From positions 1 through 64,000 of IMG/VR virus record IMGVR_UViG_3300027365_000009: a stretch of 64,000 bases of DNA, one strand, 5' to 3'. The position numbers and the translations under genes were made by a program. The stretch comes from a virus. The notes beneath the pieces are model-generated. The model had not been told where the DNA came from. It made no database searches and worked only from the letters and a program-made list of their open reading frames with translations. Position 1 is the first letter of the stretch, and the number at the start of each line of letters is the position of its first letter. Below, in pieces: positions 1 to 64,000 of this stretch.

Positions 1-83
1 TTTTTTTTTTTTTAGGGCCTCTTTTTTTTTTTTTTACTTATCCTATGGCCACATTGGTGAGCCTTTAGCTAAAGGAGTCCACT

Positions 84-956
84 ATGAAAGTGCGTTTCTT
101 ACGCGGGACGACAGAGGAGAATAATAGCCTTACGTTACCCGCAGGTGAGATTTCGATCAATCTCGATGACATGAGTTTGCGTCTCCATGATGGGGTGACG
201 CAAGGGGGCTTTGAATGCCCCAGTAACATGGCCTTTAACTTAGGCCCGGGTCCCAAGACGTTAGTGGCTGGTGATTACCAGCTCGGATACTTTGGTGAGA
301 TCAGTGCCGCGGAGTTTATTACTGGTGATCAGTTAACCGATGAGATGGGGGTGTCAGAAGGGGTGGGGATGAATTCCACCACTGCATGGTTGAAGTTTGC
401 CTATCAGGGGAAAATCCTCTACGTGGCAAAACAACCGATTCGCCATAGCGTGAGTTGGGAAACCCTCTACCAGTCCGGTCTGGTTTATGGGGTGGACGAT
501 GTGGGGATTCACCCAGCGGGAGCAAACGCTAACCAGTTCTCCCCAACGTTAATCGGTACTGATGGATTTAAAACCCGACTGTTAACTGGTGGTAATACCG
601 ATCCCGCTACGGGAGCGGGCGGCGAATGGGACCAGTTGATGGTGGCAGTCACCAACGGGACGTTTGCTTCATTAACGACCACCGAGTTGGGAGTCGGATC
701 AGGCAATGGCGCCACCAGCTGGGTCCAGGAAGCCATCTCTGGGACGCTGGCCAACCGGGTGGGGCGCGGTCAAACCTCGATCGCCGACTATGATAGTGTC
801 GCGGCGACTACCGTTACGGCCACGATGGGGTGGCGGCCGGTATTGGAGTTGACCACAGTGACCAAGATCCTCTTCCCGCCGGAAGACATCTATTATGAAA
901 CCGACTATGTGAAACCGTCGTACGTGTACGACTGGTCTTACAGTGACGCCCCGTAA
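84..956 (+). CDS. Mtd_N-domain virion/receptor-binding protein with C-terminal CLec-like domain (paralogue of the DGR target)
   Basis: N-terminus RFLRGTTEENNSLTLPAGEISINLDDMSLRLHDGVTQGGF resembles the Bordetella phage BPP-1 Mtd N-terminus. Shares GPGP-TL-AGD, WLKF, R-SVSW and GWRP-LEL blocks with 968..1819. RBS AAGGAG upstream. Confidence 0.8.
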   Translation: MKVRFLRGTTEENNSLTLPAGEISINLDDMSLRLHDGVTQGGFECPSNMAFNLGPGPKTLVAGDYQLGYFGEISAAEFITGDQLTDEMGVSEGVGMNSTTAWLKFAYQGKILYVAKQPIRHSVSWETLYQSGLVYGVDDVGIHPAGANANQFSPTLIGTDGFKTRLLTGGNTDPATGAGGEWDQLMVAVTNGTFASLTTTELGVGSGNGATSWVQEAISGTLANRVGRGQTSIADYDSVAATTVTATMGWRPVLELTTVTKILFPPEDIYYETDYVKPSYVYDWSYSDAP

Positions 957-967
957 AGGAGAGAGAC

Positions 968-1819
968 ATGAGCATTACGTTTAAGTTTACTAACCGTAAC
1001 CTCAATGAGGACGGCATCCGGGTGTGGCGTAGCGCTACCCCCTTCGATAAAGATACCCTGCCGGGTGCCACCCACGATGAACTCGTGGCGGGTACCAAGG
1101 TGTACGAGGATACCTTTGTGGCGCGGGGCGATGAGTATTACTACCTCTTCGAGACCTACCGGGGGAATGACAGCGCCTTCAGTAACCTGATTCACGGTAA
1201 GGCGCTACCGATCCTGACCGGTCCTGGCCCTCAGACGCTCTCAGCGGGCGATCACAGGCTTGGGTTCTATGGGGAGACCCTAGTGACCGACCTGGTGGAT
1301 GGCGACGCTCTGGCGACCTCTCTGGGCCTTACAGCGGGTACGTCACAATTCAGTAGTGAACCCTGGTTGAAATTCAATCATCACGGTAAGACGCTGTTCG
1401 TCGCGAAGAAACCGTATCGTCACAGCGTAAGTTGGGATCATATCGCGGCGGTGAATGCGGTGTATGGGGGTGAGACCGACGCCCAGTTTACCTCGGACTT
1501 TAATGACACCTTCCGTGTCCGTCTGTTGACCGGTGGTGACGCGGACCCAGCCTCCAGTGCCGGTGGGGAGTGGAATGACTTAATTTACCGGGTACATGTC
1601 GATGACCCCACCGGCACAAACTGGGCCTCTTACACCGATACCGACATCGTCGTGGGGACCGGTAACGGACGCGCCAGCTGGACCCAAGAGACGGCAGCAT
1701 CGAATTCGGGGTACCGCGTCTACCGAGGGCTTTCGTCCTTGGCGGGCTTCCACACGAATACTTCGTCGAATACGATTTCGACTTATGGTTGGCGGCCTTG
1801 CCTGGAACTGGTCGTGTAA
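968..1819 (+). CDS. DGR target protein: FN3/Ig-like N-terminus plus C-terminal CLec-like variable domain, likely virion adhesin
   Basis: Contains the VR at its 3' end and ends GWRPCLELVV, similar to the G(F/W)R motif of CLec-fold DGR targets. RBS AAGGAG. Confidence 0.9.
   Translation: MSITFKFTNRNLNEDGIRVWRSATPFDKDTLPGATHDELVAGTKVYEDTFVARGDEYYYLFETYRGNDSAFSNLIHGKALPILTGPGPQTLSAGDHRLGFYGETLVTDLVDGDALATSLGLTAGTSQFSSEPWLKFNHHGKTLFVAKKPYRHSVSWDHIAAVNAVYGGETDAQFTSDFNDTFRVRLLTGGDADPASSAGGEWNDLIYRVHVDDPTGTNWASYTDTDIVVGTGNGRASWTQETAASNSGYRVYRGLSSLAGFHTNTSSNTISTYGWRPCLELVV
1715..1802 (+). repeat. DGR variable repeat (VR)
   Basis: 88-nt ungapped match to 2298-2385 with 11 mismatches, all opposite TR adenines (e.g. 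aac>tac, aat>ctt, aac>ggc, aat>tat). Confidence 0.97.
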
Positions 1820-1877
1820 GAATGACTGGGTAGGGTAATAATACGCAGAGACGAACCATGTATTCGTCACGACCACA

Positions 1878-1916
1878 GCGGGGTCCTTCGAGGAGCCTGT
1901 CGACGAGGGACCCCGC
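1878..1916 (+). promoter_or_regulatory. GC-rich inverted repeat downstream of VR (candidate DGR homing hairpin/cruciform)
   Basis: gcggggtccttcg / cgagggaccccgc, 13-bp stem with one G-T pair, about 75 nt after VR, no U-tract. Confidence 0.55.
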
Positions 1917-1936
1917 CCCTAAATTTATATAGAAAA

Positions 1937-2272
1937 ATGTCGAAAATAACCGAACTTTCATCACGTATGGAAACCCTGCTAGGGACGATGTTGCCTACAT
2001 TTCGTAACTACCCGCGTCACGAACATACAGGGATGTGTCAGATTATCAAACAGAAAGCCTTTGAGGGGTTATTTCAATTACACCTTGCTGAATTCACCCA
2101 CGGTGCAGCACGAAAAGACGCGTTAAAGAAAACTCAAGCCACCTTGGTGTCGTTAATGACGGTTCACCAACTGGCATATAAGGAAGGATATATAACAGAG
2201 GGTTTTCTGGAGAATGTGTGTCGCGACACAGAAATTATCCTGAGTGGTGTGGTAAGCCAATTAACCCAATAG
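1937..2272 (+). CDS. avd: DGR accessory variability determinant (Avd-like four-helix bundle)
   Basis: 111-aa helical protein with NYPRHE (cf. FPK-E) and LAY-EGYI motifs, located between target gene and TR. Confidence 0.85.
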   Translation: MSKITELSSRMETLLGTMLPTFRNYPRHEHTGMCQIIKQKAFEGLFQLHLAEFTHGAARKDALKKTQATLVSLMTVHQLAYKEGYITEGFLENVCRDTEIILSGVVSQLTQ

Positions 2273-2297
2273 TATGTAAACGGTTTGGTCTATAATG

Positions 2298-2385
2298 CAC
2301 GTCAACCGAGGGAATTCGTCCTTGACGAACTTCAACACGAATACTTCGTCGAATACGAATTCGAATAATGGTTGGCGGCCTTGCC
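2298..2385 (+). ncRNA. DGR template repeat (TR)
   Basis: Non-coding copy of VR with 24 adenines and 9 AAY triplets in the target reading frame. Sequence after the GC-rich ggttggcggccttgcc diverges from VR (IMH*/IMH-like). Confidence 0.95.
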
Positions 2386-2553
2386 CTGACGGCTGTTTAT
2401 CTGATGGTTTGGTCGCTAAGGCCGCCTTCCGCATGTTATAGTTCGTCAAGGGGGCGAAATCGTTCGTTACCTAGATAACGAGAACACACTATGACTACCC
2501 CTCCCATCACGCTGTGGGGGTAGTCGCCCAATTATGCCGTAATGGGGTAACCG

Positions 2554-3588
2554 ATGTTTAACGATATCATGCACGAGGCTAACATCTCAGAAGCGTTCAA
2601 CGCGACACAACGTGGTGCGCCTAAACACAAACCCGCCGCCGTTAAGTTTAAACGACAGCAGTTTCATGAACTGGACAAGTTGGTCAGTGAACTTCATAAT
2701 GGGACCTACCGCCCGGGACCTTATGCGTCGTTTCTAGTACATGAACCAAAACAACGGGTTATCTTCTCACCGTCATATCGCGATAAAATCGTTCAACATA
2801 TGCTCAATAATGTGTTGTCACGACGGTATTATCCCTTGTTTATACGTGATTCTTACGCCTGTATCGAAGGTCGGGGTAATATCAGAGCAGTGCTCACCAT
2901 CCAACGGCAATTAAGGGCAATTCAGATAGAATACAATATCCAAGGCCACCTCGCAAAAAGTGACATCTCGAAGTTCTTTTACTCGATACCCCATGACATA
3001 CTCAAGCACATCTTGACCAAAGTAGTCACATGCCCGTTAACTCTGACATTGTTATATGAGATCATTGATTCTAGTCCGATCAACCCAGGGCTACCGTTAG
3101 GTAATTTAACCAGCCAACTATTTGCTAATATCTTTCTTAATGAACTTGACCAGTTCTGTAAGCGCCAACTGCGTATAAAACACTACGTCCGTTACGCCGA
3201 TGATATTGTAGTGACAACGACGGATAAAACTAATGCCGATATAATAAACGAGTTGATTGATGGGTTCCTTAAAGATAATTTACGTCTTACGTTACATCCC
3301 CGCAAAACCCAATCGTTGCCGGTTAAACATGGTGTTTCGACCTTAGGGTTTTTCATTACTCAAGAACGGCTTTATTTACTGGGACGACAGAAGTCACGAA
3401 TACGAAAGCTTTTGCATAAAACACCCGCACTACTGGAACAAGGACTGTCTTACCGTGTTATTGAACAACGTCTTAATAGTTGGTTGGCCTTCGCTCAACA
3501 TGCTAACCCGCAGTATTTTATTAGGGCCTTGCTCAATGATTACGATTTCCTTACCCTCGATAATTTAGGGCGGTTCCGATTAAGGTAA
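2554..3588 (+). CDS. DGR reverse transcriptase
   Basis: Motifs EPKQRVI, RDKIVQH, SYAC-GRG, DISKFFYSI, GLPLGNLTSQLFAN (DGR-type SQ) and catalytic YVRYADD. 344 aa, no maturase or endonuclease domain. Confidence 0.97.
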   Translation: MFNDIMHEANISEAFNATQRGAPKHKPAAVKFKRQQFHELDKLVSELHNGTYRPGPYASFLVHEPKQRVIFSPSYRDKIVQHMLNNVLSRRYYPLFIRDSYACIEGRGNIRAVLTIQRQLRAIQIEYNIQGHLAKSDISKFFYSIPHDILKHILTKVVTCPLTLTLLYEIIDSSPINPGLPLGNLTSQLFANIFLNELDQFCKRQLRIKHYVRYADDIVVTTTDKTNADIINELIDGFLKDNLRLTLHPRKTQSLPVKHGVSTLGFFITQERLYLLGRQKSRIRKLLHKTPALLEQGLSYRVIEQRLNSWLAFAQHANPQYFIRALLNDYDFLTLDNLGRFRLR

Positions 3589-3595
3589 AAAAAAA

Positions 3596-3615
3596 GCCTT
3601 CCCCGTAGGGAAGGC
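3596..3615. terminator. Terminator hairpin between convergent genes
   Basis: gccttccc-cgta-gggaaggc preceded by an A-run (U-tract on the minus strand). Confidence 0.75.
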
Positions 3616-3625
3616 AGTTATGACG

Positions 3626-4084
3626 TCATTCGTCATCGAAATCCATATTCAGTTGGCGCTGTACGTCACGGTGAGTGTGGTCCTGCTGTGTGGCATCCGC
3701 AATCGCAATGTCATACAACAGCTCCACCATATACAAGGGCAACTCCAGGAACTCATTCAGCGATAGACCAAACAATTTATGGAGTCGATACTGGTAGAAC
3801 CGACGAATGTGACTGAATAAAGGACCGCCTTCCATCACGTCTTCTTTATCGTGCAAGGCCACCGACGCCAGGGGACGTTGTTCGGTAGGACCACGCACAC
3901 GACTGTGGTTGAAAATCCCATATTCCGTTTGGTAACAGGACAGCCCGATCATCTCCGCTGCGGTAGGTCGTACCGCAGGGAGCTCACGTAAGAGGGCGTC
4001 GAACTGTCCTTCTTGACCGAGTTGATCCAACCCGAAGCGAGAAAAGCCCACGTGCCCGTTAGGGTCGTCCAGTGTGAGACTCAA
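3626..4084 (-). CDS. Tail/baseplate assembly chaperone-like protein, probably the -1 frameshift extension of 4120..5646
   Basis: Weak TTG start. Frame is open upstream to the T7 run at 4147-4153. LFGLSLNEFLELP resembles gpT-type chaperone segments. Confidence 0.6.
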   Translation of the reverse strand: MSLTLDDPNGHVGFSRFGLDQLGQEGQFDALLRELPAVRPTAAEMIGLSCYQTEYGIFNHSRVRGPTEQRPLASVALHDKEDVMEGGPLFSHIRRFYQYRLHKLFGLSLNEFLELPLYMVELLYDIAIADATQQDHTHRDVQRQLNMDFDDE

Positions 4085-4119
4085 ACGACTAAAACGGGCA
4101 TCCTCGTTCTGACTGGGAC

Positions 4120-5646
4120 TTAATTGAGCTTCCGGTTGACCAGCGTAAAAAAAGTGGTAAGGACATCCAGCGGTACCAGATGCGGGAAGCGTTCATGTTT
4201 CCCTTCACTTATCGTTTTCTTACAACTCGGACAATCAAACGAGGGAATGGCGACCATGCTTAACATGGCGTCATCCACAAACTCGGTGATCTTACCCAGG
4301 AAGCTCTCCGCGTACTCCTCGGTGGAGAACACATGGTTGAGTGCTTCGTTAATCACGTCGTCACTGTCGGCAATGACATCTTCCCCGTCATCGTCGCGTT
4401 CCCGAATGTCGGCCACCCAGTGTGAGTATTGACGGGCTGTGGTAGCTTCCCCCAGACTCAGGATATAGCGATCCCGATTGGCTCCATGTGGTGGTTCATT
4501 GAACGCCCCTTGCGTCATCTCAATGATGCCGTTGATCCAGTCTCGCCCCGCGTCTTCATACTCCTGGACGGTGGGGACTTTCAGGGTTACCCCAAGATCC
4601 TCGAACCACACCACTCGGTTATTGCCCCGCACTTTCTCAGCATGATAGAGGGTATACTCCTCTTCGGTGAGCTTGTGCTGGAAACGGCGTGCCATGAGTT
4701 TCTTCTGGGTCTTGGTCAGAGAGACACTGTCCGTCCAGAACAGACGGTTCAGGTTGAGGGTCTCTTTCACCACATGTTGACAATTTTCTGGGTCGGCCAC
4801 ACAGGGGTGAACATACGGGAACCCGTTGGGGTAGAGCGTGACTGCCAGACCCCACAGCAACGTCGGGATATCCAACACCCGTATACGTTCTTTTAGGTCA
4901 CTGGGTGTGCTGGTGTGGATGTTGGTGTCAATCACGTACTGTAGCGCAAAGTCCACCGCCACCGAGGTTAACACTTGACCGGTGTTGGAAAAAGCCATGC
5001 CTTTGGAATCAGACCCCAGCGTCACCTTTAGCTGACTCAGTTGGTACTGAAGACTTGTCAGGGCCGACAGCGGCGGGGTCTTCATGCGCACCCAAATCCC
5101 GCTGTGGTAGAGGGGTACGTCAAACACGGTACCCACGCCCGCACGACGGGACATATACGTGAGCTTTTCTTCGACAGTGTGATGCCCATCGCCCAGGCGT
5201 TGCTTGGGTTGACCGGGACGCAGCGACTGTCCTTCATACTCCAGGACCTGACGCCATTCACTCCCCTCACGAGTGGAAGCCTCTTCTCCCGCCTGATTGA
5301 TGTTAGCGTGGGTCAGGGCATTCATGACCGTACGGTACCAGGCATTGCCTTCATCGTCACCCAGCGTCCGGCCTTGGTCATTGGCCTTCTTAAAGATTGC
5401 CTCCTCTTGCTTGTCAATCTTTTTCAGCAGGTTATCGGCCTTGTCCAGGGTACCACTTACCGTACTGAACACTTCCCGGAACATCGCCAGGGCATCGCCC
5501 AGCATGATCGGTTTGTCCAGGTCCTTGGTGGAGGCAAAGTCTTCAACGAAATTCGCTGAGGATTCGGTCGGGGTCTCAGTACCATATTGCCCGGTGGAGG
5601 TGGTGTCCTCAACCGGTTTATCATCGGGCTTTTGTGAATCGTCCAT
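4120..5646 (-). CDS. Conserved phiKZ-like protein, putative baseplate hub/tail assembly chaperone
   Basis: 508-aa ORF with Cys pairs (CVADPENC, CPSC), syntenic position upstream of the vRNAP beta' gene. Confidence 0.55.
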   Translation of the reverse strand: MDDSQKPDDKPVEDTTSTGQYGTETPTESSANFVEDFASTKDLDKPIMLGDALAMFREVFSTVSGTLDKADNLLKKIDKQEEAIFKKANDQGRTLGDDEGNAWYRTVMNALTHANINQAGEEASTREGSEWRQVLEYEGQSLRPGQPKQRLGDGHHTVEEKLTYMSRRAGVGTVFDVPLYHSGIWVRMKTPPLSALTSLQYQLSQLKVTLGSDSKGMAFSNTGQVLTSVAVDFALQYVIDTNIHTSTPSDLKERIRVLDIPTLLWGLAVTLYPNGFPYVHPCVADPENCQHVVKETLNLNRLFWTDSVSLTKTQKKLMARRFQHKLTEEEYTLYHAEKVRGNNRVVWFEDLGVTLKVPTVQEYEDAGRDWINGIIEMTQGAFNEPPHGANRDRYILSLGEATTARQYSHWVADIRERDDDGEDVIADSDDVINEALNHVFSTEEYAESFLGKITEFVDDAMLSMVAIPSFDCPSCKKTISEGKHERFPHLVPLDVLTTFFTLVNRKLN

Positions 5647-5655
5647 GGGGAGTCC

Positions 5656-6135
5656 TTACTGCTGTGTCGGCATTTCAAGAAGATCACCGTGCTCAGCACG
5701 GATTACATCGACCAATGAGAACACCAGCGGGGAAATCACGGTGTCGAAGTGGTGCATCAGGTTGGTGTAGTCTTGACTGAGTGCAAACAGGATCGGCCAC
5801 TCGGCCTCAGTGGGTTTACCGGACTTGTCCTTGTGCTTGGCGTAGATGGCATCGATCTGCTGCTTGTAATCCTGCAAATCCCCAATCAGGGTCTGCATGG
5901 ACTTTTGAAACCCTTCTGGATCGGAGAGTTTCTCTTTCAAGGTGTCCATGTTGGCAAGAACCGGATAAGTAAAGCCCTGAGTGGAAAGCAGCTTCTTGGC
6001 GCTTTCGTGATACATCTGACGCAGGACTTCCCATCCTTTATCGGACTTCAATACCGTGGAGGCAACGACTTCCTCCGTGGCGCGAATGTCTTCATCAGTA
6101 ATATCGACATCGGGGGTTTGGGATTGATTGGTCAT
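5656..6135 (-). CDS. Hypothetical helical protein
   Basis: ATG at 6135 with AGGAAG upstream. Operonic with 4120..5646. Confidence 0.7.
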   Translation of the reverse strand: MTNQSQTPDVDITDEDIRATEEVVASTVLKSDKGWEVLRQMYHESAKKLLSTQGFTYPVLANMDTLKEKLSDPEGFQKSMQTLIGDLQDYKQQIDAIYAKHKDKSGKPTEAEWPILFALSQDYTNLMHHFDTVISPLVFSLVDVIRAEHGDLLEMPTQQ

Positions 6136-6303
6136 GAGACACTTCCTTTTTACAGAGAGACACAATGGGAGAACCAACGACTCAGTTTGGAGAAACGGCG
6201 TTGACTATAATAATAGCGTAAATCCGTACTTATGTACGATGGGACTTCACGCGTCGACGTAAAGGTATGTTATGACCCCCTTCTACGGTAGGAGAATATA
6301 CCC

Positions 6304-7137
6304 ATGATGGATGAACTGCGGATTGCACTACACGACATCATTCCGGAGGAGCGTATTCGGGTTTTCTTGGAAGCCCAACAGCTGCTTTCATCGATTGGCC
6401 TGTCGTCATTTGAAGACGAGTTACAGAATATCATCGGTATGCAAGATGGCATCTCCGATAACTATCTGTTCGTCGGCCGTATCCAGGACGTATTGATTTA
6501 TGCACTGGGCGACTCATTAACACAGTATGGCATTACCCTGGAAGAGAACACCACCCTTCCTGTCATGACGGGGATTCTCCAGGCCGTCGCTAACGTGGAA
6601 CACTACGTTATCCCCCAAGCCCTGTACGACATGACTCTCGCGGATTGGACGCCAGAGGAGCTGGTGGCGGAAATGACCCCGATGTTCAGTGACATCACCG
6701 GGGCGGAAGCGTTCGAGGCTATTGTCCACGTCGACGACGCGGTGGTGGTACGACTACGTGAAATTGCCCGCCAGGCAGTGGAACAAGACACCGAGCATCT
6801 GCCCCACCGTGAAGCGAAAACCGGAGCGATCAAGCGGGTGAATGCCCTGCTCAACCTCACCCAACGTGAGCATCCCCACCTCGTGGTGGAACTGGCGAAA
6901 TCCGGTGTCCCTTCAGGACAACCTCTCGACACTCTGTTGGAGACGTCAGTTGAGGCCCTCGATGGCATGCCGACGGAGAAGGCCGCCCTGGAACTCCTGG
7001 GTCTGGTGTTCTTCAGTGGCGTGGAGCCGGAAGCGCTCGGCGGCGCCTTAAAAGATGCGATTCAGGAATTTACCGATGATTACCAAGAACAGGTCCGTAT
7101 CGAGAAAGCGATTGAAGCGACCTGGGGAGAGGTATAA
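6304..7137 (+). CDS. Conserved hypothetical protein (phiKZ gp79-like position)
   Basis: 277-aa acidic ORF with AGGAG RBS, abuts the RNAP gene. Confidence 0.65.
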   Translation: MMDELRIALHDIIPEERIRVFLEAQQLLSSIGLSSFEDELQNIIGMQDGISDNYLFVGRIQDVLIYALGDSLTQYGITLEENTTLPVMTGILQAVANVEHYVIPQALYDMTLADWTPEELVAEMTPMFSDITGAEAFEAIVHVDDAVVVRLREIARQAVEQDTEHLPHREAKTGAIKRVNALLNLTQREHPHLVVELAKSGVPSGQPLDTLLETSVEALDGMPTEKAALELLGLVFFSGVEPEALGGALKDAIQEFTDDYQEQVRIEKAIEATWGEV

Positions 7138-7139
7138 CC

Positions 7140-8459
7140 ATGGACAAGCGGGACTATTTCTTATGGGCGCTAAAACAAGGCGCGGGTAAGAAGCGGGCGT
7201 GGGTGAACAGCATATTCGCCGTCACCGAACCCCCGAATGACGAAAGGATTTTAGGGCGTTGGTACTGGAATGAGAAGGGACAACGCGTGGCCCGTGATGC
7301 CGATACGGGAGACGAGTTTGTTATCAATACCAAACGCAAGGCGGATCAGCCGCTGTGTGACTTCCGTGAAGCCTTTGTGCTTCAGTCAGGAGACCTTCCC
7401 AACTACCAGGGGGATGGGCCGCTCACGACCACGTATGGGAATGTCTTCGTCAATTACCTACTTCTGGTGCTTCCGTTTGGCGACCTTTTCCCTTTCCAAA
7501 CCGGACACTTTTCCATCAAGAAGATTGAGGAGGAAATCCTCGGGCGTCTCATTGATAACCCGGAAGACGACGATGGAGTCTCTCACGCCCCAGACGGAAA
7601 ACTCTACGTCAGGCAGTACCTGCAGTTTTCTGAGTATGCCCTCTCCCTGGTTGCCTACGCGTCCATGTCGGTGGTCTCTGTCACACCGAAGGCACTCCAG
7701 TCCAATCCCAAGGCCCGTAAGCGCCGACAGGAGCTGTTAGAGGAGAATAAGGACAAACTCACTGATCCGATTGTGGCAGCCAAGATTGGTAAGGAGATGG
7801 AAGCCCTTGATCGTGAATGGTTGGAAGGTGATGCCGCGTATGACTTCTACGAAGCCAAGGGCAAGAAAGGCTTCGGGGCGGTTCGTAACAAGCTCTTTTA
7901 TCTGTTCGGTAGTGAGTCCGCCTTTACGGATGGCTCTGCGGTAACTCTGATTACCAAGTCATTGGAGGAGGGCATTGACCCCGAGAAACTCCCAGAGATG
8001 ATCAACGGTCTTCGTTACGGGTCTTACAGTCGCGGGTCTCAAACTCAGTTAGGTGGGGAATCCACCAAGACCATCTACCGGATGGTGGGGACGATTCGCA
8101 TTGAGGAAGACGACTGCGGTACCTCGTTGGGCATCCCAGTACGGATTAAAGAAGACAACGCCAAAGGGATGGTGGACTTTTGGGTGATTGATGGGAAACA
8201 ATCCGTGTTGCTCACCAAAGACAACGTCCAGTCGTATATTGGTAAGGATCTCTTACTGAGAAGTCCGGTCACCTGTAAGACCGAAGGACGCAACGTGTGT
8301 CGGCGTTGTGTGGGTGAGGCCCTAGCGGAGTTACCCGATGGTATTCCAGCAGCGGCTGCTGCAGTAGGAGGAATTTTCTTGAACAGTATGCTCAAAAAGA
8401 TGCACTCAGCTGGCGCTGTTAATACAAATAAATGGGATAGGACCAAAAGGTTAACCTAA
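7140..8459 (+). CDS. Virion RNA polymerase beta' subunit, C-terminal part (phiKZ gp80-like)
   Basis: Beta' C-terminal motifs IEEDDCGT, LRSPVTCK and VCRRCVG (Zn site), followed by LKKMH. 439 aa. Confidence 0.9.
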   Translation: MDKRDYFLWALKQGAGKKRAWVNSIFAVTEPPNDERILGRWYWNEKGQRVARDADTGDEFVINTKRKADQPLCDFREAFVLQSGDLPNYQGDGPLTTTYGNVFVNYLLLVLPFGDLFPFQTGHFSIKKIEEEILGRLIDNPEDDDGVSHAPDGKLYVRQYLQFSEYALSLVAYASMSVVSVTPKALQSNPKARKRRQELLEENKDKLTDPIVAAKIGKEMEALDREWLEGDAAYDFYEAKGKKGFGAVRNKLFYLFGSESAFTDGSAVTLITKSLEEGIDPEKLPEMINGLRYGSYSRGSQTQLGGESTKTIYRMVGTIRIEEDDCGTSLGIPVRIKEDNAKGMVDFWVIDGKQSVLLTKDNVQSYIGKDLLLRSPVTCKTEGRNVCRRCVGEALAELPDGIPAAAAAVGGIFLNSMLKKMHSAGAVNTNKWDRTKRLT

Positions 8460-8520
8460 TGCCTTAGGAGGTTTATTTCTTAATGCTTGCATCCATGAGC
8501 GATGTATAAAAATACTGAGC

Positions 8521-8554
8521 GTCTCCTTAATATGTACCCATCTGTTAAGGAGAC
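8521..8554 (+). promoter_or_regulatory. RBS-sequestering hairpin of the GIY-YIG gene with TATG in its loop
   Basis: Perfect 10-bp stem gtctccttaa/ttaaggagac containing AAGGAG. ATG at 8562. Confidence 0.75.
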
Positions 8555-8561
8555 CTCGTAG

Positions 8562-9914
8562 ATGAATTTCGATCATTTCCCGAAAGGTTGCGGCATCCTG
8601 GAAGTAACCCATACCCCCACCGGTAACTTCTTTTACGCCGTGGCGGATTCACTCCAATATACGGCGCGTCATACATACAACGTACTGCAAATCGGCTCTC
8701 ACCACAATCCCTCATTGCAGGAACTGGTGTCTAAGACAGGTATCGACGCCGTTGAGTTTGATTTCATCAAATGCGAAGACCGTCAGGAGGCGCGGGCAAA
8801 GCGCCATGAGTTACTGATCGAACATTACACTAACCCGAAACTACTCAATGGGAGCGACTTCCCTAAAGTCCCTGGTGCGTACCGCATCATCCATCGCCCC
8901 TCAGGGAAATTCTTTGTGGGTCACTCGGTAGATGTCGTCAAACTCCACAAGCACAACATGATCATGCTTCGCGCGGGAAACCATCGCAACGAGGCATTTC
9001 AACAAGTGTTTAATGAGAGTAACGGCTCGGACGACTTTACGTTTGAGTTTATCCGAACCCAAGACGGAAAGGAAGCCCGCGAGTACGCCCAAAAGTGGTT
9101 TGACGAATACTGGGACACGGGACTGATCCTCAATAACATGAAGGTTAATAGGGTGAAACGCGAGATACCCGGTGCGTACAAACTGATCCATAAACCCACA
9201 GGCCGTTTCTACGTGGGCAGCACTAAGGATATTCCTTGGCGCATTACGTCACATTTCAACCAAATGGAAACGGGGAAACACCAAAACCGGTTTCTCCAGG
9301 AGGTATGGAATGGGGACCGCGATGAGTTTGTTGTTGAGGAGTTTCCAACTAGGGACCGGGAAGAAGCCTTCTTGCTCGAACAAAAAATGATTGATGAAAT
9401 GGGCGGTGACGAGAACTGCGTGAATATCGCCAAGAATGCTAAGTCGCCTATTAGTAGTATTTTGCTTTCTGAAGAGGTTATTGCGAAGCGTAAAGCGTCA
9501 CTAAAGAAACGCCAAGAATCTCCAGAATACCGTAAGCAGATGGGTGAGAGGATGCGGGAGATGTGGAGTGACCCCGAACGTAGAGCCAACCGTCGCGGTG
9601 CGGGGAATCCCTTTGCCAAGCAAATCTGCATTGGCCCACGTTATTTCGGTTCCGTTAAGGATGCAAGTCGGACACTCGGGGTGTCGGAGTTATTACTCCG
9701 TAATCGAGCAAATGATCAAAATAGTCCGGGCGTGTTCTTCCCTGAGAATCCATTACCGTTGGATGTACTGAAAGCCAATAACCGCGAAGTCGAAAACAAA
9801 CCAAAACTTTACCACCTATATTGCCACTTTCTAAAAGAATATTACGGCATCGAACCAGAAGGAAATGTACATCATGGCGCAGGGGATTATCGGTCGGGTG
9901 AGGGGGTATCTTAA
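8562..9914 (+). CDS. Free-standing homing endonuclease with three tandem GIY-YIG-like domains and NUMOD-like tail
   Basis: GILEVTHTPTGNFFY, GAYRIIHRPSGKFFVG and GAYKLIHKPTGRFYVGST, each followed by H-N--LQ/FQ. C-terminal GAGNPFAK and YFGSVKDASRTLG. Confidence 0.88.
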   Translation: MNFDHFPKGCGILEVTHTPTGNFFYAVADSLQYTARHTYNVLQIGSHHNPSLQELVSKTGIDAVEFDFIKCEDRQEARAKRHELLIEHYTNPKLLNGSDFPKVPGAYRIIHRPSGKFFVGHSVDVVKLHKHNMIMLRAGNHRNEAFQQVFNESNGSDDFTFEFIRTQDGKEAREYAQKWFDEYWDTGLILNNMKVNRVKREIPGAYKLIHKPTGRFYVGSTKDIPWRITSHFNQMETGKHQNRFLQEVWNGDRDEFVVEEFPTRDREEAFLLEQKMIDEMGGDENCVNIAKNAKSPISSILLSEEVIAKRKASLKKRQESPEYRKQMGERMREMWSDPERRANRRGAGNPFAKQICIGPRYFGSVKDASRTLGVSELLLRNRANDQNSPGVFFPENPLPLDVLKANNREVENKPKLYHLYCHFLKEYYGIEPEGNVHHGAGDYRSGEGVS

Positions 9915-10140
9915 CCGACGTCAGTGGGCAAAATATCACTTCAACAGTTACATGAACCGTACCTGGGATCGGATGTGTCCCTTGTGTCACAATTGGTATC
10001 GGCGTGATCGTATGACGGCAAGCTTCTGTTTAGTCGGAACGCGCTTAGAAATTCGCTGTCGGTGTGGGTGTACGGCGAAATGGAACGTGGAACAGTTTCA
10101 CGCCACCTTAGACAGTGCTCATGCCGCGAAGGCGGCTTAA
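9865..10140 (+). CDS. Small zinc-ribbon protein
   Basis: CPLC and CRCGC motifs. Overlaps the end of the endonuclease gene. Confidence 0.5.
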   Translation: MYIMAQGIIGRVRGYLNRRQWAKYHFNSYMNRTWDRMCPLCHNWYRRDRMTASFCLVGTRLEIRCRCGCTAKWNVEQFHATLDSAHAAKAA

Positions 10141-10159
10141 TCCATAAAGGAGTGTTACC

Positions 10160-11272
10160 ATGAGTAATGAAACCCAAGATCCGCAAGGTGAAACTCTAGA
10201 AGAACTCTCTCCGGTCGAGGCAGCACGTGACGCATTCTCCCTCCCGGAAGCGTGGACCGATCCGCAGGTCGAACAGTGGATCAAGACCATGGAGAACGAA
10301 GAGGAAGAGACCACCGAAGACGGCGTGTTCCGCTTTGATCCGACTCGCGCACAGCGTAAACCCGCCGACTGGGAAAGCAAGGAACTCCTCGCATACCTGA
10401 AAGGCGCACTGATTGGTGTCTCCAATAAACGCCGCAGTGAACTAATCAATGAATACCGCCGCCGGGAGGATCTGGAAGAGGCTTGGAGTGACCAGCAGGT
10501 CCTGGATTACTTCCAGAAGGGTATCACGCCGGAGCAGACCTCTTATGGCGCGTGGGTCTATGACCGGACGCGTCCCCAGCGTCAAGCACAGGACTGGAGC
10601 ACTGAAGAGCTCATGTCCTGGGCCGAAGGGGAGCTCAAAGCGGTGGGTAAGACCACCGACATCAAGCTGGCGATTGAACTCAAGAAGCGCCACACCCTGA
10701 ACGCAGAGGCGGATACCGTAGGCGCGATTCTCGCGGCCTATAACCGCCAATTCGGCGACGATCAACCCGAAGAGGAGGCTACCCCCGTGTCGGAACAGGA
10801 AGGCCTCCTGGAGCGGGCTGAGACGACCTCGACCTATAATGGAGCATTAACCGAAATGAACCTGAGTTTTATTGAAGGCGTGTTGGACCGTTACGTGGCG
10901 GCCGTGGCGCCCGGTAAGCAGATCACCGAAGCCGAAGGGGGTAAAGCCCAACGCGATCTGGACAACCTGTTCAACTACGTCATGCGCATGGAAGGCCCTG
11001 CTCTCCCCGAAGCCCTGGACATGATCAAGCGCCGGGTAGTGAAGGAGCGTGAGGGGGTGTTCTCACCCAGCTATGCCTACCGCTTTACCCACCTCCTCAA
11101 AGGGGACCGTAAGGCTCAGCAGCGTCATGTGAACCTGATTGAGCTGTTCCTGATCATCACTGACCGCAATGCCGGCGCTAAGCGTAAGCAGATTGACATC
11201 CGCCACATGCTTTCCGGTTACTCTCCTGCGGTGAGTGATCGCCTGACCGACTATTTCAAGAACTACGCTTGA
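10160..11272 (+). CDS. Hypothetical protein with internal tandem duplication
   Basis: AAGGAG RBS. Repeats EAWTDPQV..DPTR..DWESKEL and EAWSDQQV..DRTR..DWSTEEL. Confidence 0.75.
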   Translation: MSNETQDPQGETLEELSPVEAARDAFSLPEAWTDPQVEQWIKTMENEEEETTEDGVFRFDPTRAQRKPADWESKELLAYLKGALIGVSNKRRSELINEYRRREDLEEAWSDQQVLDYFQKGITPEQTSYGAWVYDRTRPQRQAQDWSTEELMSWAEGELKAVGKTTDIKLAIELKKRHTLNAEADTVGAILAAYNRQFGDDQPEEEATPVSEQEGLLERAETTSTYNGALTEMNLSFIEGVLDRYVAAVAPGKQITEAEGGKAQRDLDNLFNYVMRMEGPALPEALDMIKRRVVKEREGVFSPSYAYRFTHLLKGDRKAQQRHVNLIELFLIITDRNAGAKRKQIDIRHMLSGYSPAVSDRLTDYFKNYA

Positions 11273-11721: not shown

Positions 11722-12531
11722 ATGCGTACACGGTTTTTACGCGGGACGACCGCGGAGAATAATGGGTTGACGCTCCCGGAAGGGGAATTGTCGATTGACT
11801 TAGAGAAAAAGGCAGTCCGCTTACATGATGGCCAAACCCTGGGTGGGTTTGAAGTGGTGGGGACTCAATCGGTAATGAGTGGAAGTCAGATAATCGCTAC
11901 TGATGGAGTTGTCGATTTTTATGGGGAGGTCCCCGACACTGAGCTTTTTACAAGGACTGAGTTATCGACTATTACAGGAATGTCTTCGGGAGTTGAGCTT
12001 AGCGATGCCGGTTTCTCTTGGCTTAAGTTTGGATTTAACGGAAAAATTTTATTTGTTGCCAGCAAAAATGTCCGCAGTAATGTGACCGTAAACGAGCTTT
12101 ACAATTTAGGTTTAGTATACGGGACTGACACAGTAGGGGCATTCCCACCGACAACCGGTGTTAACCAGAACACCTTGTTAACTAAAAATAACCTTACCTT
12201 CAAGGTTCGCCTCCTCAATGGTTCAGTCAACGACCCTAGCGGAGCTGAGCGTAACGTTAACGTGTTTACCGATGGCCCAGGTTCCGAATGGGACGAATTG
12301 TTGAAACGTGTACATTCCGATTACTCTCCTGGCGGTGACTGGCCTACATACACCAACGAATTTCTAGACATAAAACTAAACCGATACAGTTTTGTGAAAG
12401 AGACCCATACACACACCACCTATTCCCGCATAATGAGGGGCTATCACGGTTTACTCGGTATGTCGTCAAACATACCGCAATGGAGATCATCAAGCGGATG
12501 CTGGCGCCCTGTCCTCGAACTCGTTCAATAA
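11722..12531 (+). CDS. Second Mtd_N plus CLec-like virion protein (paralogue of 84..956 and of the DGR target)
   Basis: RFLRGTTAENNGLTLPEGELSIDLE..RLHDG..GGF, WLKF and C-terminal CWRPVLELVQ. Confidence 0.8.
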   Translation: MRTRFLRGTTAENNGLTLPEGELSIDLEKKAVRLHDGQTLGGFEVVGTQSVMSGSQIIATDGVVDFYGEVPDTELFTRTELSTITGMSSGVELSDAGFSWLKFGFNGKILFVASKNVRSNVTVNELYNLGLVYGTDTVGAFPPTTGVNQNTLLTKNNLTFKVRLLNGSVNDPSGAERNVNVFTDGPGSEWDELLKRVHSDYSPGGDWPTYTNEFLDIKLNRYSFVKETHTHTTYSRIMRGYHGLLGMSSNIPQWRSSSGCWRPVLELVQ

Positions 12532-17924: not shown

Positions 17925-19200
17925 CACTGTCGTTTCACAAGAAGACGCACATGAGAAGCTTGAGGATCTCCCTGAGGAACAGCAAGGACAGGAACTCGAA
18001 CACCCTGAGGTGGAAATGGATGAGGAAGAGGAAGCCGATTACCCCCTGTCTCAACAACAAGTCATCTCTCAGATTAGCATGTCCATGGAGTGGCTAACCG
18101 ATCTCAGGGATACGGTAGCGCGCCGTGGGGTGTCCTCCCACGATATGAAGGCCCTGCGGGAGATCCGAGGCACGCTAGCAGATGTTGGCATCGAACTGGC
18201 CCCGACCCCCGCCCTGGAACATTACCCGATTGGTAGTTATACCAGCGACCGCAGCAGCGTCAATTTAGATGTAGGTCTAGAGAGTATTTCACGCACTATC
18301 GTTGAGACCGTTAAGCTGTGGATTCGTAAGTTGGTAGAATACATCAAGAAGATGTACCGTTGGGTGAAACAACACCTTAAGTCGGAAGATAAGTTCACGC
18401 CCTTTCTTGAACGCTACCAAGAACTGTTCATGGTACTTCGTGATGCCCAGAAGCGCCTCAAAGACGCCAGTGCGGCTGGACGGGGTCGGGAGTATGACAA
18501 GGCTATCGAGAGGGCATTAAATGAATTGATCAAGGATTCTCAACTCAAACGGAGTCCTTTGCAGCTCGCACTGCTGGGAGAGCCCGACCAAGCTGCTCGT
18601 TTACGCACGCTCGAGAAGGATGCGTTTTCCTTTACGCAGACCGTAGAGCGCCAAGTCGATGAGATTGATTTTCTTCTCGGCAACAGTCCCCAACGTAGCA
18701 CCCAAGTCAATGCAGAAGGAACGAGCATTGCGGGCAAGATCCTCCAAGAAGAAATCGATATTTTCACGGCAGAGATGCCCCAGGGAAATTATCTCCAGAA
18801 GCACGTCGCCGTCGATGTATTGGGGACGAAGCCAATTCCCAGTGTATCAGTTACGCTGTCTCCTTACGATTACCTTATGGTCATGCATGAGGAACTCACC
18901 AAGCAACTCAACAATATCCGTAATATCGATATTGATGATAGTCAAGTTGACAAGGTGTCGGGAGTTCTTGGGGATCTGAGTAAGAATGTCGATTATCTCG
19001 TTAAGTTAGCGTCGTTCTTCCACAACACAAACCGCCAGAAGGTGGTGACGTTAAAGAAGCTCGTGACCTTCGAGATGAAAGCACTAAATGCGCTTTATAA
19101 GGATGTCACCACCAATGCCGTAGATACGCGTCAAGCGGAAACCTTCGAGCGGATCTATCGCGACGTGGAGGCGAAACTTAAGAAAGAGGGAATTCGATAG
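17914..19200 (+). CDS. Putative virion head protein
   Basis: Acidic N-terminal propeptide with SME/ALE/GLE (S/A/G-x-E) sites typical of phiKZ head proteins. GGAGG RBS. Confidence 0.7.
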   Translation: MTFDTVVSQEDAHEKLEDLPEEQQGQELEHPEVEMDEEEEADYPLSQQQVISQISMSMEWLTDLRDTVARRGVSSHDMKALREIRGTLADVGIELAPTPALEHYPIGSYTSDRSSVNLDVGLESISRTIVETVKLWIRKLVEYIKKMYRWVKQHLKSEDKFTPFLERYQELFMVLRDAQKRLKDASAAGRGREYDKAIERALNELIKDSQLKRSPLQLALLGEPDQAARLRTLEKDAFSFTQTVERQVDEIDFLLGNSPQRSTQVNAEGTSIAGKILQEEIDIFTAEMPQGNYLQKHVAVDVLGTKPIPSVSVTLSPYDYLMVMHEELTKQLNNIRNIDIDDSQVDKVSGVLGDLSKNVDYLVKLASFFHNTNRQKVVTLKKLVTFEMKALNALYKDVTTNAVDTRQAETFERIYRDVEAKLKKEGIR

Positions 19201-59765: not shown

Positions 59766-60779
59766 TTAGGCGATCGGAGCAACGTACAGGTACTGAACCT
59801 GGACCGTGTTGCCATCCCACTGACCGGAGGTATCCAGGTCAATGGTGAACTCGTTGCTGTTGACGGTGGCCACCAGCGGGGCATCATACGCGGCACCAGT
59901 CGCGCCATCGATGTAGCGTACGGTGGCGAAGTTCAGGATGCCGTCGATGCCGCCCTTCGGTGCGTGAGTCAGCACGATGGTGTCAGTCGCGGTGGTGCTC
60001 TGGTTGACCACCACGGACTCCAACATGACCTCCGGACCGCCGGTACGGGCTTCCTCGTCAGCGTATGCCTTGACGGCTGCAGAGGAGGGTGCCTGATCGG
60101 CCGGAGCGGAGACTTCCAGGTCCTGAATCAGCTCAGCCTTGAGGACGGCGTCATCTAGGTTGATAGCAGCGGTAACCGCCAGAAAGTCCACCTTGGCCTT
60201 GGCGGCGTCGGTGTAGGCGTTGGTATCCGGGTTGGACTCGTAGGTGGTCTTGATGCTGGCCGCGTTGATGGAGTTTTCCAGCGCGTCCTGATCAGAGAGC
60301 TTGATCCACGAGGTGGCCACGCCGTTGACATCGACAGCGCCCGGCTTGTACATGGCCCACTTGGTGTCGCCGTCATCGACGACGAACACGCGGTCAGCGG
60401 TGTCCAGGTTGGTGAGCGCATCACGCTCGGCGATAGTGGCGACGTTGTAGTTGGTGCCCAGCGACAGCTCGGCGGCGGTGATCGCGTCGTCCACTTCAGT
60501 GGTGGAGTACACGTTCAGGTTCGTACGGGCGGTCGGAACGTCCGCGACGTCGCTCAGGTTGTTGGCAATCTTGAGGGATTCACTGCTACCGGTAGAGGCG
60601 GCAGTGTTCACTTCGTTGATTGCCTGAACCAGGGAGGTCTTGTTGGTGGTGTTGAGCAGGCTCAGGTCACCGTCGGCGGTCTGACGGGCGGTGGTCTCAT
60701 CGGTGATGGCCTGATTGATCTGGTTCAGGTCATCGGTAAGGCCGATGATAATACTCTTATGGCGCTTCAAAATTGCCAT
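59766..60779 (-). CDS. Tail fibre/virion protein
   Basis: KTSLVQAINE and NNLSDV-D--TARTNL fibre repeats. Paralogue of 60833..61882. Confidence 0.7.
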   Translation of the reverse strand: MAILKRHKSIIIGLTDDLNQINQAITDETTARQTADGDLSLLNTTNKTSLVQAINEVNTAASTGSSESLKIANNLSDVADVPTARTNLNVYSTTEVDDAITAAELSLGTNYNVATIAERDALTNLDTADRVFVVDDGDTKWAMYKPGAVDVNGVATSWIKLSDQDALENSINAASIKTTYESNPDTNAYTDAAKAKVDFLAVTAAINLDDAVLKAELIQDLEVSAPADQAPSSAAVKAYADEEARTGGPEVMLESVVVNQSTTATDTIVLTHAPKGGIDGILNFATVRYIDGATGAAYDAPLVATVNSNEFTIDLDTSGQWDGNTVQVQYLYVAPIA

Positions 60780-60832
60780 GGGACTTTCCTCTTTTAGCGT
60801 GTGATAAAACGACTTGACTTAAGATTTAACCG

Positions 60833-61882
60833 TTAGTCAAGGGTGCCTTGATCGGCGTAGCCTTGTTCATCGACGACCGGACCGGACGGTGGGACATGAG
60901 CGTACTGAATGGTAACATCGAAACCATCCCACTCACCGGAGGTCTCCAGCACGAGGGTGAAAACGTTCGGGGTCGCTGTGGACTGCAGCGGAGCGTCATA
61001 TGACACGCCATTGATATCGGTATAACGTACCGTACCGAAGTTCATGATACCTGCCACACCGCCCTTGGGGGCGTAGGTGAGGGTGATGGTATCACTGACG
61101 GTAACAGTCAGGGTTTCTTTGAGGGTAGTGGTTCCCCCAAGACGCACCGACTCACGAATGTACGGCGTCACCGCATCAGCAGACGGTACCTGGGTGGCGT
61201 CTGCTCCGATGGACAGGAGGTCCTGGCCAAGTTCAGCTTTCAGTGCCACATCATCCAGGTCAATCGCCTGGGTCACGCTGAGCAGGTCCACCTTCGCTTT
61301 GGCGGCGTCGGTGTAAGCGTTGGTGTCGGCGTTGGACTCATACTCGGTCTTGAGGGCGGACGCACTGATGGTCGCCTCCAGACTATACTGAGTCATTAAC
61401 GGCGCCCAACCGGTAACCGCGCCAGTGCCTGCATCAAACGTGGTCGGCTTGTAGGTGGCCCAGGTGCCGTCACCGCTGTCTGCCACGAACACCCGATCAT
61501 TGGTGTTCAGGTCCATCAGCGCATCACGCTCAGCAATAGTGGCCACGACGACATTGGTGCCGAGATCCAGTTTTGCTGCCTCAATCGCATTGTTGATTTC
61601 ATCGATTGAGTAGATGGACAGGTTGGTACGGGCGGTAGCGACATCCTGAAGATCGGCCAGGTTCTGGTCAATTTTCAAAGACGCGTCACTACCACTTTCC
61701 GCGCCAGCCAGCAGTGAGTTAATGGCTGATACCAGGTCGGTGGTATTGGTGGTTTCCAGAAGCTGAAGGTCGCCATCGGCAGCCGCACGATCCAGGGCTG
61801 CTTGGTTGATGGCATCGATCAGTGTCTGGAGGTCATCTGACAAGCCGTAAATAATACTCTTGTCTCTCTTCAAGATCCCCAT
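60833..61882 (-). CDS. Tail fibre/virion protein (paralogue of 59766..60779)
   Basis: Collinear with its neighbour, e.g. shared DTNAYTDAAKAKVD. Confidence 0.7.
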   Translation of the reverse strand: MGILKRDKSIIYGLSDDLQTLIDAINQAALDRAAADGDLQLLETTNTTDLVSAINSLLAGAESGSDASLKIDQNLADLQDVATARTNLSIYSIDEINNAIEAAKLDLGTNVVVATIAERDALMDLNTNDRVFVADSGDGTWATYKPTTFDAGTGAVTGWAPLMTQYSLEATISASALKTEYESNADTNAYTDAAKAKVDLLSVTQAIDLDDVALKAELGQDLLSIGADATQVPSADAVTPYIRESVRLGGTTTLKETLTVTVSDTITLTYAPKGGVAGIMNFGTVRYTDINGVSYDAPLQSTATPNVFTLVLETSGEWDGFDVTIQYAHVPPSGPVVDEQGYADQGTLD

Positions 61883-62768: not shown

Positions 62769-64000
62769 TTACACGACCACCACACGAAAGCGGGTGCCTT
62801 CCCCATCAATCAAACCAACCTTTTCAATCCGCACACGCCCATCTGGTTCCAATGTGTAGTTCTGAAGCGTAGTGGGCTGCTGTACAGACGGTACCGCATG
62901 GTTGTATTCCACAAAGAAAGGAATATTCATGGTCAGTACGTTCGTATTTCCAAACGGTTCCTTATAGAAAATGTTGAAATACGATGTGGTGTTAAAGCCA
63001 TCATGGTAGATCACCGAGATGTTCTTCAACATGCAGGTGGACGGGACATTGTCAATCTCTAACGTATTCCCGCCACTTTGGGTAATGGTGATCTGGGACG
63101 AGTCAGTTTCTGACCCAAAGATCACCAGGTTAACAAAACATTCAACGCCGTTATGGGTGAATGTGTACTCACGGGCATGAGGAACCCCACTGCCGGCAGT
63201 GCCGCCTGAAGTACCCCCTCCAGGAATATCGACAGTTACCTCACCTGCGCTTTGAGTGGTGGTGACACCCGCTCCGGTGAAATTAAGGTGTGTAGCCGCG
63301 GCGGTGAGCTCAGTTCCTTCATCACTAACCGCAACGGATTGACCAGGTTCGCCTTGCGGGCCCATGGGGCCTTCGGGACCCTGAGGGCCTTCGGGGCCGA
63401 TGGGACCAACCTCCCCCTGAGGACCTTGGGGACCCACAAGTGAAGTCAACCACTCCGTCTCCGTCCCCACGAAGCCGTTTGTTACCGCCACATCATAAGC
63501 ACTGTCGCCCTCTAATGAGACGAGCCATTCGCTTTCGGTACCCACATACCCGTTATTGACGGCGATTTCATAGGCAGATTCAGCACTGGTGACGCCTGCA
63601 TCCAACCAATTCATTCCATCGAAATAGTAGAGCTCGTCGGTACCTACCAGATAGACGGTTCCCTGTGTTGCGTCGGTTGGGAGCTCTCCGAACGTTGCTA
63701 CTTGACCGTCAATCTGTAACCCGTGGCCAGCGGGACCTTGTGGGCCCTCGGGACCCTGAGGGCCTTCAGGACCGGTAGGGCCTTGCGGGCCCATAGGACC
63801 TTCGTCCCCAGCAGGTCCGACAGGACCCTGTTCACCCTGGATGCCCTGCGGACCTACCAATGAGGATAACCATTCGGTTTGGGTGCCCATGAACCCATCA
63901 TTTAAGGCAACCTGATAGGCACTGTCGCCTTTCTCCCCCTTCAGGGTATCGAGCCACTCGGCTTCTGTCCCAGTAAAGCCCTGGGCAACCGCACTGTCGT
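62769..64000 (-). CDS. Collagen-like tail fibre protein (5' end outside the window)
   Basis: G-X-Y runs and repeated SAY--AV--GFVGT--EWL-SL-G units. Frame stays open to the window edge. Confidence 0.8.

Follow-up and report, generated by a model that had tools for sequence, protein, structure and literature searches.

Most of the diversity-generating retroelements (DGRs) characterised so far come from temperate phages, crAss-like phages and bacteria. Nucleus-forming jumbo phages shield their DNA from the cytoplasm and are believed to engage in little gene exchange. The first 64,000 nucleotides of IMG/VR virus record IMGVR_UViG_3300027365_000009 (positions 1-64,000, the whole stretch analysed here and called the window below) raise the question of whether a working DGR can belong to a phage of this second kind. 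The record is a linear contig of 149,876 nt, not closed, with a CheckV completeness of 51%, implying a full genome of about 290 kb. According to the list of open reading frames (ORFs), a DGR target gene preceded by a paralog, an avd gene and a reverse transcriptase (RT) gene lie at its extreme 5' end, all on the plus strand. Our analysis favours, with a probability of roughly 0.88, a canonical and currently active DGR, native to an uncultured jumbo phage of the phiKZ-like (Chimalliviridae-type) group, that rewrites a lectin-like virion protein. The element itself is a textbook DGR with a known mechanism, and it is the phiKZ-like setting that makes it notable.

Template repeat, variable region and their alleles

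The target gene (968-1819, plus strand, 283 amino acids) contains a variable region (VR) at 1715-1802 (plus strand), which covers residues 250-278, that is 29 codons, and stops five codons short of the 3' end. It is followed on the same strand by avd (1937-2272, 111 amino acids), the template repeat (TR, 2298-2385), a spacer (2386-2553) and an intact RT gene (2554-3588, 344 amino acids). A repeat finder returned an 86-nt direct repeat (1717-1802 and 2300-2385), which base-by-base comparison lengthened to 88 ungapped nt (1715-1802 and 2298-2385) with 11 mismatches, all 11 at TR adenines (random probability about 6e-7) and all changing codon positions 1 or 2. TR has 24 adenines among its 88 nt and, read in the frame of VR, nine AAY codons; the computed capacity of this AAY design is about 3.9e13 protein variants over 14 codons, with a stop codon never possible. 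An earlier reading made from the letters of the window (the sequence-only reading) had given the same order of target, avd, TR and RT and the same counts of aligned nucleotides, mismatches, adenines and AAY codons, which are exact on recount. It had also described a complete DGR with an intact DGR-type RT, and the target with its VR, avd, TR and RT were indeed all present, with the features by which these parts of a DGR are recognised. When both strands of the whole contig were scanned with any change allowed at A positions, a single VR was found for this TR. The other five target-family paralogs, including 70657-71544, had no TR match in that scan and are therefore not current targets, so that one family copy of six is diversified.

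Other assemblies were found, by protein search, to contain copies of the target that are nearly identical. Contig L084 (ENA ERZ27247962, 1262 nt) equals window 935-2196 save for 19 positions, every one of which lies in VR at a TR-adenine position (19/19; random probability about 7e-38). A third allele is common to L161 (JGI 3300018411, 3330 nt, covering window 192-3521), L162 (ENA ERZ27247961) and L163 (JGI 3300018405), with 11 VR differences that again all fall at TR-adenine positions (11/11; about 2e-24). These contigs have no difference in TR, which L161 spans, and one elsewhere in 3.3 kb. Across the three VR alleles, 41/41 VR differences are at TR-adenine positions and none is at the 64 other VR positions. 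Because the three alleles stand on an otherwise frozen background with an invariant TR, the element is, as judged from these sequence comparisons, recently active, its VR being rewritten by mutagenic retrohoming from a constant TR. Recombination among paralogs is ruled out as the source of the alleles, because the 64 non-adenine VR positions never differ. A VR without variation, which the sequence-only reading had named as the mark of an inactive element, is not what these contigs present: VR does vary among otherwise identical contigs, solely at adenine-templated positions.

Two segments of the spacer were complementary to TR in an inverted-repeat search, 2418-2426 pairing with the TR 3' end at 2374-2382 (9/9) and 2434-2451 with TR 2320-2337 (16/18). 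The RNA fold of 2273-2560, which takes in TR and spacer, had a z of -3.5 and beat 200/200 shuffles, and the pairing of spacer with TR may serve the DGR RNA in priming or as a scaffold. On the 3' side of the target stop codon are two plus-strand hairpins, of which the first (1850-1868) is small and the second (1878-1916) strong and GC-rich; they lie 48 and 76 nt downstream of VR and may be a terminator or a cruciform (DNA fold -19.9 kcal/mol, z -4.4, with 0/200 shuffles as good). VR and TR share an identical GC-rich 3' end, and their homology ends abruptly at 1802/2385. Rfam over 1-4200 returned nothing relevant, and a k-mer search for a common promoter motif upstream of the genes yielded nothing usable.

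Proteins encoded by the cassette

For the RT, the family matches were RVT_1 (4e-21) and phrog_1423 (4e-96), and among solved structures the closest was the DGR RT of Bordetella phage BPP-1 (8ub7, E 6.5e-39), compared with about 1e-12 for group II intron RTs. The RT alignment contains LGNLTSQ, of the LGxxxSQ type, as well as YADD and an arginine at the bRT R74 position. The role of such motif residues and of the R74 equivalent in adenine mutagenesis is known from work on bRT. The RT phylogeny, a quick tree, places the protein within a supported clade of DGR RTs and gathers the RTs adjoining this target family into one supported clade, which takes in contigs without the phiKZ-like core genes tested, such as G004 (42 kb, 76% estimated completeness). 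The nearest RTs come from non-jumbo contigs. GC content falls to 45.8% in window 2001-4000, which covers avd, TR and RT, against about 52% for the contig, a dip consistent with horizontal acquisition of the cassette. Given the span of the RT clade and the low GC of the cassette, target tip, avd, TR and RT therefore appear to travel together and have probably been acquired horizontally.

A profile built from ten homologs of the 111-residue protein, encoded between target and RT in related loci, matches 2gsc and 2rld, both of them four-helix-bundle proteins. In the AlphaFold model of the 111-residue protein there are four helices, and the predicted local distance difference test score (pLDDT) is 81. 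Foldseek ranks 2gsc, 2rld and the BPP-1 Avd 4dwl (template-modelling score about 0.7) highest for this model, together with the 8ub7 Avd chains, and there is a marked drop after these. On profile and predicted structure, the four-helix-bundle protein between target and TR is Avd.

The target matches phrog_1062 at 4e-57, and its AlphaFold model (pLDDT 93.7) has the DGR variable protein TvpA (2y3c; E 7e-3, probability 0.94) as its top PDB match in Foldseek. In a VIA search, residues 1-81 matched FN3 domains and residues 86-281 matched PvdO, of FGE fold (Z 8.5 over 137 amino acids), and TvpA (Z 7.8 over 135 amino acids), a lectin-fold match of moderate strength since Z values near 8 are common. 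Foldseek and VIA concur on a TvpA/FGE-type fold, which the C-terminal position of VR fits, and the protein is accordingly described as a predicted FN3 domain (residues 1-81) followed by a lectin-like TvpA/FGE-type domain (residues 86-281). It had no Pfam FGE-sulfatase or DUF1566 match.

Six copies of the target family occur in the contig: 84-956, 968-1819, 11722-12531 and 138592-139293 on the plus strand, and 70657-71544 and 127671-128450 on the minus strand. The copy upstream of the target (84-956, 290 amino acids) is a non-diversified member with 38% identity to it, a phrog_1062 match at 1e-48, an N-terminus that weakly matches Pfam Mtd_N (3.7e-4) and a GWRP-type motif at its end. The copy in the core region (11722-12531) matches phrog_1062 at 3e-37 and is likewise non-diversified. 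The FN3 N-terminus of the target is unlike the Mtd_N/tail-fibre-type N-terminus of the paralogs. The family (phrog_1062/16120/21620/3589) consists of annotated virion structural proteins in cultured phiKZ-like phages, examples being PhiPA3 gp082, an annotated phage EL protein, proteins of Erwinia and Ralstonia jumbo phages, and gp82 of Salicola phage SCTP-2. In the relatives G001 and L146 the paralog-target pair adjoins tail-fibre, muramidase and large baseplate-type genes. From this annotation and gene neighbourhood we infer a virion, probably tail-associated, receptor-binding or adhesion protein. A widespread phiKZ-like "virion structural protein" family could thus be identified as lectin-fold binding modules; a 2021 comparison of 224 jumbo phages recorded no FGS lectin domain (PMC7824862). 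In the further relatives L147 and L149, the paralog-target pair stands at another site, adjoining a prohead protease (Peptidase_S80) gene and without avd or RT, and on gene order the family is evidently one that moves around within genomes of this type.

Setting of the cassette in a phiKZ-like genome

From 3.6 kb on, the contig carries a phiKZ-like core: a split RNA polymerase (RNAP) beta subunit (phrog_2962, 1.6e-137), a split DNA polymerase, internal head proteins, a major head protein of phiKZ type (phrog_3231), a DnaB-like helicase and tail fibres, the separate tail-fibre genes being at 59766-61882 and 62769-63890. Its gp87 homolog matches 290 phiKZ-like records at 48-49% identity. The sequence-only reading had assigned the surrounding genes to such a core, and the gp87 homolog, phrog_3231, phrog_2962, split DNA polymerase and internal head proteins bear this out. 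No integrase was found, and a megablast of window 1-25000 against GenBank phages gave no match.

The junction between cassette and core (3589-3625) reads as an A-run followed by a short hairpin, common to two convergent genes. The first of the core-side genes (3626-4084, minus strand, 152 amino acids, phrog_12109) forms the right flank of the cassette. It has a homolog in G001 at 47% identity and also stands directly beside target-family genes in contigs L083 (Logan SRR25906338) and L164 (NCBI GCA_030390125.1), which come from other samples and are relatives at about 80% DNA identity. The gene order in both is paralog, target, a 269-residue paralog, and then homologs of 3626-4084 and 4120-5646, so that both cassette flanks are kept and a paralog gene occupies the place where avd, TR and RT sit here. 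L083 and L164 are 99.9% identical to each other, and three of their four differences lie 5-16 nt upstream of the VR-equivalent stretch, with none inside it.

A further contig, L165 (70.9 kb, ENA ERZ27245760), matches window 15-10084 at 100% identity, crossing from RT into the core and reaching the RNAP beta gene. The contig studied here starts with T13-AGGGCCTC-T14 (window 1-40), and L165, from a separately named assembly, ends at most 15 nt from the same spot. The same layout of paralog, target, avd, TR and RT recurs in L146 (24.7 kb, 21 ORFs in common with the contig), where VR/TR mismatches are again all at TR adenines (12/12) and the layout adjoins tail-module genes common to this contig. 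L146 also encodes, at 18410-18805, a Tad1-type protein (Acb2_Tad1_hairpin) that is 60% identical to the contig ORF 97509-97967. Because L083 and L164 hold both flanks, the flanks are naturally linked. On these comparisons the cassette is native to the phage and genuinely joined to its core. A chimeric assembly at this point had been flagged by the sequence-only reading, but the junction is reproduced in L165 and the flanks are conserved in a relative of about 80% identity.

Whether this phage builds a nucleus has to be judged from its relatives. When 14 phiKZ proteins, among them gp54 (chimallin), gp39 (PhuZ), gp55/68/71/73/74 and gp69, were compared with the contig by tblastn, gp56 alone matched, and the profiles phrog_4795 (chimallin) and phrog_4733 found nothing on the contig. 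PhuZ tubulin is present in most phiKZ-like nucleus-forming phages, not in all. The closest complete relative found is G001 (IMGVR_UViG_3300037502_002993, also listed as L085/L086), a genome of 220.6 kb with terminal repeats, to which the contig shows 104 syntenic ORFs at a median identity of 47%. Its chimallin (E 1e-122) is encoded in its first 50 kb, the segment that has no counterpart on this contig, and chimallin also occurs in the relatives G005 and G009. Chimallin-encoding phages form one monophyletic family with a 68-gene core (review PMC12908238). Because the chimallin of G001 lies in the segment missing here, and because a family defined by chimallin shares this core, formation of a chimallin nucleus by the present phage is, by analogy with these relatives, very probable. 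G009 and G006 (IMGVR_UViG_3300018411_000029 and _000019, respectively) represent a second phiKZ-like phage, which bears chimallin, shares its sample of origin with L161 and has core proteins 35-40% identical to those of the contig. G009 was considered as the missing half of the genome and rejected, given its overlapping gene content, ends that do not overlap, and a tetranucleotide correlation of 0.97 with G006 versus 0.76 with the contig.

Alternatives, mechanism and known systems

The DGR and target of a smaller phage could have been joined by assembly to a phiKZ-like contig at about 3600, as the position of the DGR at the very 5' terminus of the contig, the low GC of avd-TR-RT and the non-jumbo origin of the nearest RTs might suggest. 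We consider this highly improbable, since L165 spans the junction at full identity, L083 and L164 hold both flanks linked, L146 repeats the layout beside shared tail-module genes, and the contig contains five further copies of a target family that is typical of phiKZ-like phages. It is just as improbable that the DGR is a relic whose VR alleles stem from exchange among the six paralogs, by recombination or gene conversion, or from ordinary point mutation under selection. Paralogs are certainly many, and decay does occur, G001 having kept avd and lost both RT and the TR/VR repeat. However, all VR differences (11 to TR and 19 + 11 between alleles) fall on TR-adenine positions, only 0-1 change is seen in 1.2-3.3 kb around VR, no paralog matches VR, and RT, Avd and TR are intact, with TR invariant.

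Two other alternatives accept a native and active DGR and concern what it means. The lineage might build no chimallin nucleus, in which case no compartment problem arises. Neither chimallin nor PhuZ was found on 150 kb, and the core proteins are only about 47-52% identical to those of any chimallin-encoding genome examined, but the fragment is 51% complete, the chimallin of G001 sits in a 1-50 kb segment without counterpart here, the still more distant G009 (35-40% identity) has chimallin, and phages with this core are one family defined by chimallin (PMC12908238), so that we regard the absence of a nucleus as unlikely. The diversified protein might instead be an accessory adhesin or decoration protein, such as a binder of glycans or of mucus-like polymers, in which case the DGR would leave host range unaffected. 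Its FN3 N-terminus, which differs from that of the paralogs, the separate tail-fibre genes, and the restriction of diversification to one of six paralogs are in keeping with such a role, whereas the virion structural annotation of the family in cultured phiKZ-like phages, the position of the paralog-target pair in G001 and L146 directly beside tail-fibre, muramidase and baseplate-type genes, and a fold that is that of known DGR ligand-binding proteins argue for receptor binding. The accessory role is a real possibility, albeit the less probable of the two.

Several observations weigh against a canonical, active DGR native to a nucleus-forming phiKZ-like phage. The best and sole NCBIfam match of the putative Avd, DivGenRetAVD NF033474, reaches E 9e-4 and 19.5 bits, far under the curated cut-off of 80. 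No pair of initiation of mutagenic homing (IMH) sites, IMH and IMH*, and no cruciform could be defined from the 3' ends of VR and TR together with the downstream hairpins. The lectin-fold match is of the moderate strength given above, and the assignment of the target as a receptor-binding virion protein comes only from the annotation of its family and from its gene neighbours. On the 150-kb, 51%-complete fragment, chimallin, PhuZ, PicA and the phiKZ non-virion RNAP subunits were not found. The DGR lies within 84 nt of the contig end. The reads behind L165 may be those of this contig or a sister set, which makes its agreement at the junction less than fully independent. Both contigs stop at the shared T-rich spot, either because assembly repeatedly breaks there, in a low-complexity or hypervariable paralog region, or because the end is real.

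In the mechanism that we propose for a native, active DGR, the avd-TR-spacer-RT unit would be transcribed, and RT and Avd would bind the TR-spacer RNA, copy TR to complementary DNA (cDNA) and misincorporate opposite adenines. The synthesis of cDNA is presumably RNA-primed, as in BPP-1. The cDNA would then take the place of VR, the 88 nt at the 3' end of the gene at 968-1819, while TR stays constant, and 14 codons would be re-randomised on the lectin-like tip of a virion binding protein.

If the nucleus is built, RT-Avd-RNA or the cDNA must reach shell-enclosed DNA during the lytic cycle. Import of a ribonucleoprotein or of cDNA would be needed because proteins are translated in the cytoplasm and the target DNA would lie inside the shell. 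We lean towards a phage that builds the nucleus and whose DGR works within single lytic infections, by way of either an RT-Avd-RNA particle that the PicA/Imp import machinery takes in as a selected cargo or a single-stranded cDNA that is made outside and crosses the shell. Should this be true, nucleic-acid or ribonucleoprotein traffic into the phage nucleus would exist in an undescribed form, with the DGR as its natural reporter, and nucleus-forming phages too would use targeted hypermutation of a virion lectin to track changes of the host surface. It would also pose the mechanistic question of how cytoplasmically made RT-Avd or cDNA gets to a VR inside the chimallin shell.

The closest known system is the BPP-1 DGR (mtd-avd-TR-spacer-brt), which shares with this locus the order of target, avd, TR and RT, the VR at the C-terminus of a lectin-fold protein, an AAY-rich TR and mismatches at adenines only. 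The RT is nearest to bRT (31% identity), Avd superposes on 4dwl, and the upstream paralog has a weakly Mtd_N-like N-terminus. BPP-1, however, is a 42-kb temperate podovirus, whereas the present phage is of phiKZ-like lytic type at about 290 kb, and the locus differs in its FN3 N-domain, its six-member paralog family, the lack of a recognisable IMH or adjacent cruciform, and a very divergent Avd. Treponema denticola TvpA and other DGR proteins of FGE/C-type-lectin fold resemble the target in fold and in carrying VR on C-terminal strands, but sequence identity is only 12-15%, and the target domain is of the phrog_1062 type found in jumbo-phage virion proteins.

Homology of the target to the phiKZ-like virion-protein family extends over about residues 75-282 at 31-51% identity (51% for SCTP-2), with a GWRP-type C-terminal motif and several copies per genome. 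The cultured members examined, phiKZ and SCTP-2, had no RT when searched directly, whereas here one family copy is a DGR target. The DGRs of lytic-type (crAss-like) and temperate gut phages, Hankyphage among the latter, likewise diversify tail or adhesion proteins, and the present RT is 30-32% identical to crAss-like RTs, but those phages replicate in the cytoplasm with no protein shell around their DNA.

The closest complete relative, G001, keeps the paralog, a target homolog (52% identity) and the avd gene (NF033474, E 3e-9), with no RT anywhere in the genome and no TR/VR repeat. From its gene content it looks like a decayed DGR, and it was rejected as a one-contig example of chimallin with a working DGR because RT and the TR/VR repeat are gone. 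G002 (88.9 kb), which has an RT and a family member, was rejected as phiKZ-like, having 10 ORFs in common with the contig and no core genes. Another 14 jumbo contigs that encode family members, of which eight are 90% complete or more, have no RT. In GenBank, 179 phage records matched the RT, and none of the about 85 that were listed exceeded 137 kb. The sequence-only reading had known of no characterised DGR in a nucleus-forming phage, and full-text literature searches likewise found no paper describing one in phiKZ-like, Chimalliviridae or nucleus-forming phages. In a large DGR survey (PMC8144416), the words jumbo, phiKZ, virulent, temperate, huge phage and genome size do not occur.

Two features of the neighbouring core may also be recorded. 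The block 3626-11272, whose last gene is at 10160-11272, is inverted relative to the DNA-polymerase/gp87 block of G001 (214284-220000) and of G009 (30-37 kb), and is flanked on both sides by target-family genes here (84-1819 and 11722-12531). Within it, a 450-residue homing-endonuclease-like protein (phrog_314, with a weak GIY-YIG match in the gene table of L165) is encoded at 8562-9914, directly after the split RNAP beta-subunit gene at 7140-8459.

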